In this document: positions 30,371 to 40,365 of the stretch, piece by piece | How the letters are laid out: every line of letters begins with the position of its first letter | Position numbering within the stretch: the first letter of the stretch is position 1 | IMG/VR virus record: IMGVR_UViG_3300025132_000021 | Span: 1-64,000 of that record | Source: a virus | Length of the DNA stretch: 64,000 nt | Strand: one strand, 5' to 3' | Notes under the pieces: generated by a model | What the model saw: only the letters and a program-made list of their open reading frames with translations | Database searches by the model: none | Told to the model about the DNA's origin: nothing | Program-made: the position numbers and the translations under genes

Positions 30371-31075
30371 ATGGCGAGAGTTATTGTAGATGCTCACGAG
30401 CATGGTCGGATTAAGGCTATGGCCGAGATGATACTAAATGCAGAAGTAGAACCCTTAGCAGTGGGAGATTTTAGAGTAGAGGGTCAAGGCTTTGAAGAAC
30501 AACCAATTGCAGTAGTAGTTGAGCGTAAAACATGGTCAGACGCTTATGGAAGTTTTAATTCTAAGCGACTTCAAAATCAAATCTCTCGTTTAATTGAGGC
30601 AGCCGTTGATTCTAATGTTCGGCCAGTTTTACTGGTAGAAGGTTCAACCAGAGATATTTATGGAGTCAATGCTGACCGTATTCGTTCACTTCAACAACAC
30701 CTTAACCGTCTTTCAGTAGAATCTGTTCCCGTAGTCTACACAGAATCTATTGATGAAACTTTCCGTTATCTCAACTCGGTAGTTCACCGAGTCAAGTCTA
30801 AAGAGTTTGGTTCATTAGTTAGACCAGTCACAGTAGTCACTTCTTCTCGCAACAAACATCATGCTATGTTAGAACAAATGCCTAAAGTTGGACGCACAAT
30901 GGGTAAGAAAATCTATGATGAATATGCTTCATTAGTAGATTTTGTGAATCGTTTTGAATCTGACCCCGTAATTGGTTCTCATACCAAAGCCTATCAAGCC
31001 ATTGTTGATTTCCTCAACACAGAATGGGGAGAATCTAAATCTGAAACCATTACTAAATTGGAGGCGAGTGAATGA
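30371..31075 (+). CDS. XPF/ERCC4 (Mus81-like) structure-specific nuclease with HhH
   Basis: VDAHE, VGDF, VVERKTWSD, LLVEG, MPKVG HhH. Confidence 0.9.
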   Translation: MARVIVDAHEHGRIKAMAEMILNAEVEPLAVGDFRVEGQGFEEQPIAVVVERKTWSDAYGSFNSKRLQNQISRLIEAAVDSNVRPVLLVEGSTRDIYGVNADRIRSLQQHLNRLSVESVPVVYTESIDETFRYLNSVVHRVKSKEFGSLVRPVTVVTSSRNKHHAMLEQMPKVGRTMGKKIYDEYASLVDFVNRFESDPVIGSHTKAYQAIVDFLNTEWGESKSETITKLEASE

Positions 31076-32122: not shown

Positions 32123-34153
32123 ATGACAAATACAAACACAGATACAAATAGATTTACACTTTCAGATAATTTCGTAACTAAATACAAGAGGAAAAAAGCA
32201 CCTTTTGGATTCAACGGATTAGGAGAGTTAGTTTATCATAGAACCTATTCTCGTATGAAGCCAGATGGTAAAAACGAACAATGGTGGGAAACAGTTCAAC
32301 GAGTTGTAGAAGGCACATTCAATATGCAAAAGCGACACATTGATGCACATGGTTTGGGTTGGAATGCTTGGAAAGCCCAACACTCGGCACAACAAATGTA
32401 TGACCGTATCTTTAACATGAAGTTCCTTCCACCGGGTCGTGGACTATGGGCTATGGGAACACCAATCACTGAAGAAAAGAAACTTTTCGCAGCCCTGAAC
32501 AACTGTGCTTTCGTATCTACTGAAAACTTCAAAGGTGAGTTCTCCTCGCCTTTTTGTTTCTTGATGGATGCTTCTATGCTGGGTGTTGGAGTAGGTTTTG
32601 ATACCAAAGGTGCTGGCACTTTAATTCTCAAAGGTCCAAACGAACAACGCCGTAGTGAACTATATGAAATCCCTGACACTCGTGAAGGCTGGGTAGAGTC
32701 CCTCCGACTATTGTTAGATTCCTATGCTCAAGGCACAGGAGAAATTGAGTTTGACTATTCAGCAATCCGTCCAATGGGAGTTCCTATTCGTGGATTCGGT
32801 GGTGAATCATCAGGACCAGAACCCTTGATTGAACTGCACCAAACAGTTCGTTCTATTCTTCTTCACGAAATTGGCAAACCAATTTCACTCACTGCTATTG
32901 TAGACATTATGAATCTAATTGGCAAGTGCGTAGTTGCTGGAAATGTGCGACGCACAGCAGAAATTGTCTTTGGAGAGCCAGATTCAGAAGAATACCTTGA
33001 CCTTAAGAATTATGAGGTCAATCCCCACCGAGCCGAATATGGTTGGACTTCTAACAACTCTATTTTCGCAGAGGTTGGAATGAATTATGAACCTGCTGCC
33101 GAGCGTGTTCGCTACAATGGTGAACCCGGTTTTGCATGGCTTCACAATATGAAAGCCTATGGCCGAATGGCAGATGCCCCAAATTGGAAAGACCGCCGAG
33201 CCACAGGTGGTAATCCTTGTTTGGAACAAACTTTAGAATCCTATGAACTTTGTTGTTTGGTAGAAACTTTCCCTAACAACCACGATTCAGTAGAAGATTA
33301 TTTGGAAACTTTGAAATATGCTTATCTTTATGCTAAGACCGTAACTTTGGGGCAAACCCATTGGCCTGAAACCAACCGAGTTATGCTTAGAAATCGTAGA
33401 ATTGGTTGTTCCATGTCAGGTATTGCCCAATTTGTTGCTAACAAAGGATTAGGAGAACTACAAGCATGGATGGATAAAGGCTATGCCCACATTCAAAAAC
33501 TTGATGAAAACTATTCTGATTGGATGGCTATTCCTCGTTCTATCAAAACTACTTCTATCAAACCATCAGGAACAGTTTCTCTTTTGGCAGGTGCTACACC
33601 GGGTATTCACTTCCCCGAATCCAGATACTACATTCGTCGTATGAGATTGGGCGTAGGTTCAAATCTCGTTCCAGCCCTTGAGAAAGCAGGATACAAACTT
33701 GAACCTGCTTTTGGTTCAGAAGAAACTACTTTGGTAGTTGAAATCCCTGTTGATGTAGGAGAAGGTGTTAAAACTCTTGATAATGTTTCTATGTGGGAAC
33801 AACTTGGTATGGCATCTTTGGCACAACGCTATTGGGCAGATAATCAAGTATCTTGCACCGTAACTTTTGACCCAGAATCAGAAGGCTCTCAAATTGCGGC
33901 GGCTCTTGACCAATTCCAATATCAACTCAAAGGTATTTCTTTCTTGCCCCGATTAGACTTGGGTGCATATCCACAAATGCCTTATGAATCTATTGATGAA
34001 TCTACTTACCATGAAATGAAAGCACAACTTGGAAAACTTTCTTTTGGTCGTATCAAGGGTGAAGAAATCGTCGTAGAGCGTTTCTGCGATAATGATGTTT
34101 GCGAAATTGATTTTAACCCCGTAGATAATGAAGAAGTTAATGCTCAACTATAA
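32123..34153 (+). CDS. nrdJ: Class II (B12-dependent) monomeric ribonucleoside-triphosphate reductase
   Basis: FLPPGRGLW, LNNCAF, GNVRRTA, NPCLEQ, TSIKPSGTVS, C-terminal FCDNDVC. Confidence 0.96.
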   Translation: MTNTNTDTNRFTLSDNFVTKYKRKKAPFGFNGLGELVYHRTYSRMKPDGKNEQWWETVQRVVEGTFNMQKRHIDAHGLGWNAWKAQHSAQQMYDRIFNMKFLPPGRGLWAMGTPITEEKKLFAALNNCAFVSTENFKGEFSSPFCFLMDASMLGVGVGFDTKGAGTLILKGPNEQRRSELYEIPDTREGWVESLRLLLDSYAQGTGEIEFDYSAIRPMGVPIRGFGGESSGPEPLIELHQTVRSILLHEIGKPISLTAIVDIMNLIGKCVVAGNVRRTAEIVFGEPDSEEYLDLKNYEVNPHRAEYGWTSNNSIFAEVGMNYEPAAERVRYNGEPGFAWLHNMKAYGRMADAPNWKDRRATGGNPCLEQTLESYELCCLVETFPNNHDSVEDYLETLKYAYLYAKTVTLGQTHWPETNRVMLRNRRIGCSMSGIAQFVANKGLGELQAWMDKGYAHIQKLDENYSDWMAIPRSIKTTSIKPSGTVSLLAGATPGIHFPESRYYIRRMRLGVGSNLVPALEKAGYKLEPAFGSEETTLVVEIPVDVGEGVKTLDNVSMWEQLGMASLAQRYWADNQVSCTVTFDPESEGSQIAAALDQFQYQLKGISFLPRLDLGAYPQMPYESIDESTYHEMKAQLGKLSFGRIKGEEIVVERFCDNDVCEIDFNPVDNEEVNAQL

Positions 34154-34157
34154 GTAG
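34149..34157 (+). promoter_or_regulatory. TATAAGTAG box overlapping the nrdJ stop codon
   Basis: Exactly 30 nt before first base of the sRNA stem. Confidence 0.65.
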
Positions 34158-34178
34158 TTGAAGCATACTAATACTAAT

Positions 34179-34258
34179 TGGAGCCAACATCAAACACTAA
34201 CCGTTCTCGCCTTCCTCACCAACGGTTCTTCCCTCACCTCTCTTGGTGTCTGGCTCCA
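34179..34258 (+). ncRNA. 80-nt small RNA with pyrimidine-rich anti-SD-like loops
   Basis: 15-bp terminal stem 34179-34193/34243-34258 (bulged C, one G-U); inner stem AACCGTT/AACGGTT; loops CTCGCCTTCCTCACC and CTTCCCTCACCTCTC. Confidence 0.7.
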
Positions 34259-34292
34259 CCATCTATTCCAATAAGCCTAAGCCTTGCCAATC

Positions 34293-34303
34293 TTTAAGTA
34301 TCA
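34293..34303 (+). promoter_or_regulatory. TTTAAGTATCA promoter box
   Basis: 30 nt before ATG 34323. Confidence 0.8.
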
Positions 34304-34322: not shown

Positions 34323-35000
34323 ATGGTGCTTGAGTTTTATCCCATAGAGTTTGATGATGACTCGGTAGGATTCGTAGCAGTAGAGTCAGAGTTTGAACCT
34401 TGGTTAATTGCAGCCGTAGGTGTTGGTTTTGAAGATATGAGTTATTCTGTTCTTGAAGAAGACGATGATGGCTTAGTAGAATTGATTATTGACGGGGACG
34501 ATTTTGACAACCTTCAAGATTTGTATGCAGAATATCAAACCTATGGTTGGGCAGTTATTGATGACGATGATTATGCAGAATGGGCTGAAGCCTTTTCAGC
34601 CGAACAAATGAGTGATGAAGATTATCTCTTAATGATTATAGAGTTTGATGAGAAAAATCCACAACCTGCGAAACCTTATCATATAAAGTCAAGTCTTTAC
34701 GAAGATGGCACAGTCCCTTCAATGGCATTCTTTTTGGGTGGGAAAACGGTCAATCCAAAAGTAATGCTCAAAGCAATTAGAGAAGGCAGAGTTGCTCGCC
34801 TCAATCGTAATGCCGACACCAAAGGCTACTATCGTGGAATCAATCTTGACCGCTTTTCTGGTAATAAATCTAACCGCCGAAACTTTTCACAAACTCGTCG
34901 TAATCTTAAGAAAGATATGTTCGGTTCAGTATCCCTCGGCAGCATCCTCACAGGTGTTGCAGCCCTCGGAACAATTTTGTATCTGGTTAATAGGAAGTGA
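34323..35000 (+). CDS. Tail-anchored modular protein (acidic module / FSAE / basic module / TM)
   Basis: C-terminal TM LGSILTGVAALGTILYLVNRK. Confidence 0.7.
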   Translation: MVLEFYPIEFDDDSVGFVAVESEFEPWLIAAVGVGFEDMSYSVLEEDDDGLVELIIDGDDFDNLQDLYAEYQTYGWAVIDDDDYAEWAEAFSAEQMSDEDYLLMIIEFDEKNPQPAKPYHIKSSLYEDGTVPSMAFFLGGKTVNPKVMLKAIREGRVARLNRNADTKGYYRGINLDRFSGNKSNRRNFSQTRRNLKKDMFGSVSLGSILTGVAALGTILYLVNRK

Positions 35001-38557: not shown

Positions 38558-38652
38558 GCATCACGCCCCAAACTTTAAGTAGTTGATAAGACCTATTGTT
38601 TAGTAGAGGAAACAGTGGGTTTCCTATGAACGACAAATAAAAGGTAATTTTA

Positions 38653-40365
38653 ATGAACAAAGAAAATAAACTAAAGAAGACATTTTTAACGATTTTAACA
38701 GCAATTATGCTTGCTATGAGTGCAGGTGTAGTTACTGGTGAAGGTTCCGACCCTCTTGACCCATCAGACGGTGGCGCAGATTGGGATGGCGACGGTTTGA
38801 CTAACAAAGAAGAACAAGACGCTGGAACTAATATGAACAACCCAGATTCAGACGGTGATGGACTCCCAGATGGTTGGGAAGTTGCTAACGGCCTAAATCC
38901 AACTAACGGTGGCGATGCTAACGGCGACCCAGATGGAGATGGTCTAACCAACTCTCAAGAATATGCACAGGGAACTAACCCAAACAATGCCGATACTGAC
39001 GGCGATGGCAAACCTGATAACACAGATGCCTTCCCTAACGACCCTAACGATGGAGAATACTCCGACTCCGATGGAGATGGAATCCCAGACGCATACGACC
39101 CAGATTATCAAGAGTCCCAAGCGGGTTCTGGTAATGGAGGCACAGAAGGCGGTGGCGAGTCTGAAGACAATGGACAAGGCGAAGGCCAAGGTCAGGGTCA
39201 AGGACAGGGACAAGGACAAGGACAGGGGCAAGGCCAAGGCCAAGGTCAGGGTCAAGGTCAGGGTCAGGGTCAAGGACAGGGCCAAGGTCAAGGACAAGGA
39301 CAAGGGCAGGGCCAAGGACAAGGGCAAGGCCAAGGTCAAGGTCAAGGACAGGGACAGGGCCAAGGCCAAGGTCAGGGTCAAGGACAAGGCCAACAACAAG
39401 GTCAAGGTCAAAGTCAAGGACAAGGACAACAAGGACAACAAGGCCAGCAAGGAAACCAAGGACAACAAGGACAGGCTGGACAACAAGGCCAACAATCTGG
39501 ACAACAAGGTAACCAAGGTCAGCAAGGCCAACAAGGGCAACAAGGTCAGCAACAAGATAACGGGCAAGGCCAGCAACAACAAGGAGGTCAGCAAGGCGGT
39601 CAGCAATCTGAACAACAAGCAGAAGAACAGAACGGCCAAAACCAAAATGGTGCTAACCAACAACAGCAAGGTCAAACCCAGAATGGTCAGCAAGGCCAGC
39701 AAGGTCAGCAAAATGACCAGCAACAAGGCCAACAGTTGGATAATCAAGACCAAAATGGAGATAACGACAATGATGGCGACGGTATTCCTGATGACTTAGA
39801 CAATGATGATGATAACGATGGAATCCCAGATACTATGGATGATTCACCTCAAGACCATGATAACGACGGCATTGATGATGCTGAAGATAATGATGATGAC
39901 GGAGATGGAATCAACGATAATGAAGAAGTCAATGATGGCAACGACAACACAGATATTTATGACCACGACAATGACGGTATAGAAGACCGTTTTGACTTTG
40001 ACATTGATAATGACGGAATTGACAACTGGAATGACCTGTATGAAAACGGGTCAGATGCCAGCCGAGACCACGACAATGATGGTATGGACGATGGTGTAGA
40101 CACAGACGACGATAACGACAACATTCTTGATGTTGATGAAATCGGCGGTGCTTGGTCTTCCTATCGCTACGACCATGATAACGACAACATTTGGGATGCA
40201 ACAGACCTTGATGATGATAACGATGGTCTATCAGACTGGTTTGAGAACAATGATGGCAACGATATGACAGGTCAATTTGACCATGACAACGATGGCGTTA
40301 GTGATTACTTAGACCTTGACGATGATGGCGACGGTATTCTGGACGAGTTTGAAAACGGCGTTTGA
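38653..40365 (+). CDS. Secreted protein with TSP3-like Ca-binding DxDxDG repeats flanking a Gly-Gln low-complexity domain
   Basis: Signal peptide; DSDGDG/DHDNDG/DDDNDG repeats; (GQ)35 then Q/G/N-rich. Confidence 0.85.
   Translation: MNKENKLKKTFLTILTAIMLAMSAGVVTGEGSDPLDPSDGGADWDGDGLTNKEEQDAGTNMNNPDSDGDGLPDGWEVANGLNPTNGGDANGDPDGDGLTNSQEYAQGTNPNNADTDGDGKPDNTDAFPNDPNDGEYSDSDGDGIPDAYDPDYQESQAGSGNGGTEGGGESEDNGQGEGQGQGQGQGQGQGQGQGQGQGQGQGQGQGQGQGQGQGQGQGQGQGQGQGQGQGQGQGQGQGQGQGQGQGQQQGQGQSQGQGQQGQQGQQGNQGQQGQAGQQGQQSGQQGNQGQQGQQGQQGQQQDNGQGQQQQGGQQGGQQSEQQAEEQNGQNQNGANQQQQGQTQNGQQGQQGQQNDQQQGQQLDNQDQNGDNDNDGDGIPDDLDNDDDNDGIPDTMDDSPQDHDNDGIDDAEDNDDDGDGINDNEEVNDGNDNTDIYDHDNDGIEDRFDFDIDNDGIDNWNDLYENGSDASRDHDNDGMDDGVDTDDDNDNILDVDEIGGAWSSYRYDHDNDNIWDATDLDDDNDGLSDWFENNDGNDMTGQFDHDNDGVSDYLDLDDDGDGILDEFENGV
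39184..39393 (+). repeat. (GGN CAR)x35 coding repeat (Gly-Gln)
   Basis: 210 nt with synonymous codons mixed. Confidence 0.9.

Follow-up and report, generated by a model that had tools for sequence, protein, structure and literature searches.

The window, a 64,000-nt (64-kb) stretch of viral DNA, was the left end of a linear virus record of 160,342 bp with a perfect 99-bp inverted terminal repeat. This virus (G000) and its relative G006 were linear viruses of 160 to 166 kb with inverted terminal repeats, and the relatives compared were from marine metagenomes. The viral genes encoded the PolD large subunit, a small-subunit-like phosphoesterase, a PolX-like protein, PCNA, a ligase, TFB, an ArsA-type ATPase, and NrdJ. 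With this gene set, the host is archaeal. The viral PolD and ArsA shared 40% to 47% and 31% to 42% identity, respectively, with Poseidoniales proteins, and host assignment through TFB homologues gave a single Thermoplasmatota label only; Poseidoniales, the assumed host, served as the stand-in for all host comparisons. Most large proteins of G000 and G006 had no match in PHROG, and a literature search, covering mostly open-access papers, found no report on this virus group. Both viruses also encoded several proteins with hydrophobic C-terminal tails, and the ATPase was of the ArsA/Get3 type. Related-virus contigs L361 and L365 (G008) were found inside a genome labelled Rickettsiales, where they are probably misbinned.

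The features at and near the locus, which lies directly 3′ of nrdJ, are as follows.

31058–31071, plus strand: translation start region of pcn (PCNA), a candidate viral target in one subclade according to its pairing rank
32123–34153, plus strand: nrdJ, class II ribonucleotide reductase (Pfam RNR_Alpha and RNR-II insertion domain), the fixed upstream neighbour by synteny
34149–34156, plus strand: TATAAGTA, TATA box that would serve as promoter for the RNA; it overlaps the stop codon of nrdJ and matches the leaderless promoters of the genome in class and spacing
34179–34193, plus strand: 5′ arm of the closing stem; from G34180 on, its first 7 pairs look like those of a tRNA acceptor stem
34180–34261, plus strand: predicted small RNA of 82 nt (from fold and conservation), with a putative start at G34180 (or T34179) and a putative end at or near A-CCA
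34199–34227, plus strand: inner hairpin with a 7-bp stem and a 15-nt C/U-rich loop (34206–34220), a hairpin being present in all sequence types
34228–34242, plus strand: C-rich 3′ strand, predicted to be unpaired in all types, a pyrimidine run ending in C-purine-C-C and conserved candidate seed
34243–34258, plus strand: 3′ arm of the closing stem, where the predicted fold has a single bulged C
34293–34300, plus strand: own promoter, by box spacing, of the next gene downstream, which is leaderless and has its ATG at 34323

Genome-wide, the TTTAAGTA box, which is the main promoter box, had an ATG 30 to 31 nt downstream in 49 of 64 cases, and the 30-nt distance from box to stem at this locus thus equalled the start-site spacing of the genome; behind the box at 34149, the closing stem was located where the other boxes have the ATG. 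The first-pass annotation had described the box TATAAGTA at 34149–34156 as lying exactly 30 nt before a 15-bp closing stem (34179–34193/34243–34258), which enclosed a perfect 7-bp inner stem and two unpaired segments with three CTC[AG]CC units. This anatomy was reproduced throughout: the stem began at T34179 and had 15 pairs, including one G.U pair, plus one bulged C; the inner stem was formed by 34199–34205 and 34221–34227; and the unpaired segments, 34206–34220 and 34228–34242, were 15 nt each. Like an SD-masking trans sRNA, the locus possessed its own putative promoter, a C-rich seed predicted to be unpaired, and no ORF. An A-CCA followed the stem directly, as at the acceptor end of a tRNA, and a start at G34180 would give a 7-bp acceptor-like stem. 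Folding z-scores were -5.3 for the plus strand and -2.6 for the minus strand, and an end-closing stem of 13 bp was observed at just 13 of 3000 random genome starts (0.4%); folding energy by itself was unremarkable, 17% of GC-matched windows folding equally well. The element is real, and sequence and fold support a discrete gene for a structured plus-strand RNA that is conserved and exposes C-rich segments able to pair with Shine-Dalgarno (SD) motifs.

Homologues of 63 to 89 nt were present 3′ of nrdJ in five sequence types, namely G000, L326/L336, G006, L349–L352, and L353–L356, corresponding to about four independent lineages because the last two types are close to each other. Each type had a box 29 to 30 nt upstream, a closing stem of 13 to 16 bp in which compensatory changes were seen, a single hairpin, and a C-rich strand left exposed. 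The box overlapped the nrdJ stop codon in three types and was clear of it in L349 and L353, with the spacing unchanged. Among close relatives, the RNA was almost identical and the box spacer, linker, and 3′ flank were variable. Positions 1 to 13 of the closing stem were paired in all six rows compared; pairs 1 to 3 (G-C, G-C, A-U) and 6 were invariant, and the other pairs covaried, with two-sided changes at seven positions (4, 7, 8, 10, 11, 12, and 13), a count that leans towards structure since the stem register was taken from predicted folds. The bulge on the 3′ side after pair 7 was also found in G006, and none was seen in L326, L349, and L353. Unpaired bases were 81% to 97% pyrimidine across the types. 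In every type, the 3′ single strand held a C/U run ending in C-purine-C-C, the purine being A in some cases and G in others, either of which can pair with U. The hairpin loop was C-rich in two types, repeating the C-purine-C-C motif in G000 and holding ACCUCCU, the canonical 16S tail, in L326; in the other three types (G006, L349, and L353) it was U-rich.

The plus strand was assigned because both G.U pairs and z-scores favour it: the three divergent types had four G.U pairs each, and their z-scores were -3.2 to -5.8 on this strand versus -0.2 to -1.9. An SD-displaying RNA on the minus strand was rejected on the side of the promoter, the G.U pairs, and the z-scores. The downstream neighbour differed by lineage, being an acidic protein, another ORF, or tRNA-Pro, so that the small RNA is independent of it; the reading as a leader of the downstream gene was rejected because of that gene's own box and its variation between lineages. 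In G006, a tRNA-Pro(GGG) gene (G006:126957–127034, minus strand) began one base past the CCA of the small RNA and is probably co-transcribed from the same box, the only box seen from nrdJ to this tRNA.

No Rfam family matched the small RNA (one sub-threshold match was on the opposite strand), and ARAGORN predicted neither tRNA nor tmRNA in it. A covariance model recovered the known copies with no further paralogues, and in 121 Poseidoniales genomes it gave one spurious match and no credible homologue; this model was built from a poor alignment with 15 pairs kept, so that distant cellular homologues could be missed. The element is an uncatalogued viral small-RNA family. Loose pattern scans of the viral contigs gave chance matches only. 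A second promoter-driven RNA of about 190 nt was found in a near relative. This RNA (G000:155371–155595, equivalent to L199:5372–5596, plus strand; G006 L340:4325–4570, minus strand; also L207) had the same box and 5′ end as the small RNA, a 7-bp closing stem starting with G, a U-rich 5′ half, and the conserved block ATAGGTTTYGGCTGATT; it was conserved in G005 and G006, close to one end of the genome. Pairing between the two RNAs was no better than that of shuffles.

The 16S rRNA of Poseidoniales ended in GGAUCACCUCCU, the canonical tail, and GGTGA, TGAGG, GAGGT, and GGAGG were the SD 5-mers. A site of SD strength was observed in 31% of 454 sampled host genes versus 9% of control windows. Against 141 host SD windows, the seeds paired at -10.1 to -11.7 kcal/mol, compared with -10.0 for the 16S tail, these being energies of free duplexes with loop constraints ignored. 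All eight seeds were better than the mean of their own dinucleotide shuffles; however, seven ranked just 6 to 20 of 80 (top 10% to 25%), indicating that composition explains most of the SD pairing, whereas no shuffle out of 80 was better than the L326 loop. The U-rich terminal loops of three types paired poorly with SD sites. The earlier statement that the loops complement SD motifs is partly supported: the C-rich segments can pair with them, but only the 3′ strand is C-rich in all types and most seeds lie in the top 10% to 25% of shuffles; the SD examples named there, the site before pcn and GGAGGAAGA, were both present. In the virus, SD sites were found in 14% of leaderless-class genes versus 45% of the other genes, fractions that are approximate as gene starts were called by a simple rule; the 45% was preferred over 63% from another start set, whose start choice leans towards SD. 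The SD-led viral genes included pcn, nrdJ, and those for the PolD large subunit and an MCM-like protein, and they paired as well as host sites. Since viral downstream cistrons are more often SD-led than host genes (45% versus 31%) and pair equally well, selective silencing of the host is not predicted. The first-pass annotation had proposed that host or early SD-led mRNAs are silenced and leaderless viral mRNAs spared, of which the escape of leaderless first cistrons can be retained, but not the sparing of the virus at large. We infer that the split would be between leaderless and SD-led cistrons, not between virus and host, with leaderless first cistrons alone escaping.

The explanation we tentatively prefer, with a little less than even confidence, is that the small RNA is a trans-acting repressor whose loops mask SD sites in the manner of NfeR1/cuckoo RNAs, LhrC, and sRNA41. 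A short RNA would be transcribed from its own TATA box, as the spacing suggests, and its ends would pair into a long protective stem, which may be processed as tRNA ends are. Together with the inner hairpin, this stem is predicted to keep the conserved C-rich strand open; this strand, and in the G000 lineage also the loop, would pair with G-rich SD sites of the GGUG/GGAGG type, by which ribosome loading or re-initiation may be blocked. Many SD-led cistrons of host and virus would be hit and leaderless first cistrons left untouched, so that the RNA might act as a broad translation damper rather than in host-only shutoff. SD masking is supported by the synteny and constant box spacing of the homologues in all five types, by the closing stem kept through two-sided changes, by the pyrimidine-rich unpaired bases, by seed energies close to that of the 16S tail, by the A/G switch in the C-R-C-C motif, which keeps pairing with U, and by the L326 loop with ACCUCCU, which beats 80 of 80 shuffles. 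Against it, composition explains most of the pairing, the 133 orthologues of G000 and G006 gave no conserved target other than through SD strength (rho -0.06), the seeds vary among lineages, unlike those of cuckoo RNAs, the own replication genes of the virus would be affected, and no Lsm chaperone was above cut-off in 41 candidate hosts. As to Lsm/SmAP proteins, the 41 Poseidoniales genomes had none above the Pfam cut-off and three archaeal controls scored, which may reflect lineage-wide loss or divergence. In Haloferax, an SD was without effect at a tested 5′ UTR (PMC3986360), and the effect of SD on re-initiation was variable (PMC6728339).

A protein decoy, the protein sponge of the first-pass annotation, in which the pyrimidine-rich single strands soak up a host RNA-binding protein or nuclease, e.g. 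a reader of the 16S 3′ tail or of C/U tracts, and thereby protect ribosomes or viral RNA, is rather unlikely, but would account for pyrimidine content being kept more strictly than sequence, for the U-rich terminal loop without SD pairing in three types, for the second viral RNA with the same ends and a U-rich interior, and for the lack of a conserved mRNA target. The A/G interchange in the seed would suit pairing with U better than sequence-specific protein binding, and the candidate hosts offered no partner protein, neither Ro60 nor Lsm being found in them. A stronger form of SD masking, in which bulk RNA masks SD sites cell-wide and redirects ribosomes to viral leaderless mRNAs as a viral RNA-only translation switch, is unlikely; in the mostly open-access literature searched, neither such an RNA-only mechanism of host takeover nor a viral anti-SD RNA was found.

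Mimicry of a tRNA end, with the acceptor-like stem and A-(CCA) as the working part for tRNA-processing enzymes, a synthetase, or a tRNA-targeting toxin and the loops as spacers, is quite unlikely. The G-C, G-C, and A-U pairs and the following A are invariant, a host tRNA with CAU anticodon shares the first three pairs and A-CCA, the G006 tRNA-Pro gene adjoins the CCA, and the 7-bp closing stem starting with G recurs in the second viral RNA; however, T-, D-, and anticodon arms were lacking, ARAGORN and Rfam were negative, the encoded CCA was absent in L283, L326, L349, and L353, simple pairing with the start-site T may account for the invariant A, and the conserved C-rich strand is left unexplained.

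That the RNA acts in antisense on a single specific site, be it the pcn start region of the virus or the 16S rRNA of the host around position 1115, is very doubtful. Pairing with pcn ranked 9 of 200 in G000, 2 of 18 in L349, and 1 of 18 in L353, and seed and pcn differed between L349 and L353 by one matching G-C to A-U change, but this pairing was weak in L326 and G006 and the cross-lineage seed-target matrix was not diagonal. The G000 loop was a perfect 12-nt complement of Poseidoniales 16S rRNA (chance about 0.01); the other types matched no more than 9 nt of this site, or none of it, the predicted rRNA fold has the site partly paired, and a loop variant in L271–L273 breaks both the pcn and the 16S pairings. 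None of the rRNA sites was common to all types, nor was any pairing with SRP RNA, RNase P RNA, or 23S rRNA. That the element belongs to the nrdJ operon mRNA, as a structured 3′ end or a signal for processing, and is no free RNA, is highly improbable: it is always directly 3′ of nrdJ, with the box overlapping the stop codon in three types and no terminator in between, but the L349/L353 box stands apart from the stop codon with the spacing kept, the second RNA with the same box and ends sits elsewhere, in G006 no other box was seen from nrdJ up to the tRNA, and the more distant relatives L003, L004, L357, and L361 had no element after nrdJ.

Y RNA and YrlA have paired 5′ and 3′ ends that form a long stem around pyrimidine-rich loops, as in the viral RNA. 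They carry a conserved bulged C on the 5′ strand, whereas the viral RNA has its bulge on the 3′ strand, and three types have none; moreover, Ro60/TROVE was found neither in the virus (0 of 1) nor in the Poseidoniales genomes taken as hosts (0 of 61), which makes the Y-RNA-like alternative of the first-pass annotation unlikely. A tRNA or tmRNA was rejected for want of a T-arm, D-arm, anticodon, or tag frame, the 7-bp acceptor-like stem with discriminator base being present, and an archaeal H/ACA or C/D guide RNA for want of a K-turn or K-loop, conserved boxes, tandem G.A pairs in the folds, and a shared rRNA site.

As regards SD masking, cuckoo/alpha-r14 RNAs of Alphaproteobacteria (NfeR1, CcsR/RSs0680) resemble the viral RNA in variable stems with compensatory changes and redundant anti-SD pyrimidine motifs (PMC4615179, PMC10746234), and NfeR1 blocks translation via its anti-SD loops (PMC10746234). 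They have two to four adjacent hairpins, each with the invariant CCUCCUCCC, whereas the viral RNA, from an archaeal virus, has one hairpin nested in an end-closing stem and a variable seed. Membership was rejected on architecture and motif, CCUCCUCCC being absent from all five types, with L326 the nearest. LhrC of Listeria and the UCCC-motif sRNAs RsaE and RNAIII share redundant CU-rich sites in loop and single strand, and LhrC works without Hfq (PMC4132741); however, LhrC is bacterial and chromosomal, ends in a terminator hairpin, and has neither sequence homology to the viral RNA nor a tRNA-like closing stem. [quoted passage not shown] The viral RNA can be read as a variant of anti-SD-displaying sRNAs with tRNA-like ends; a function is likely, SD masking being the leading candidate. 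It adds an uncatalogued RNA family to a group of marine archaeal viruses, large and linear, of which little is known. Should SD masking be true, the anti-SD sRNA strategy would extend to viruses, and the RNA would directly probe how much archaeal initiation and re-initiation rely on SD pairing, with its five natural variants as ready-made seed swaps.

Other features were observed in these viruses. One relative encoded an Spt5-like transcription elongation factor with an NGN domain (L353:13878–14351), and a divergent tRNA-Ala(UGC)-like gene with G3.U70 (G000:80312–80385, plus strand) was seen only at a relaxed ARAGORN score. At 38574–38625 of the window, a promoter box was followed by a short hairpin leader ahead of a Gly-Gln repeat protein (38653–40365), and this hairpin leader was kept in G006 and L361.
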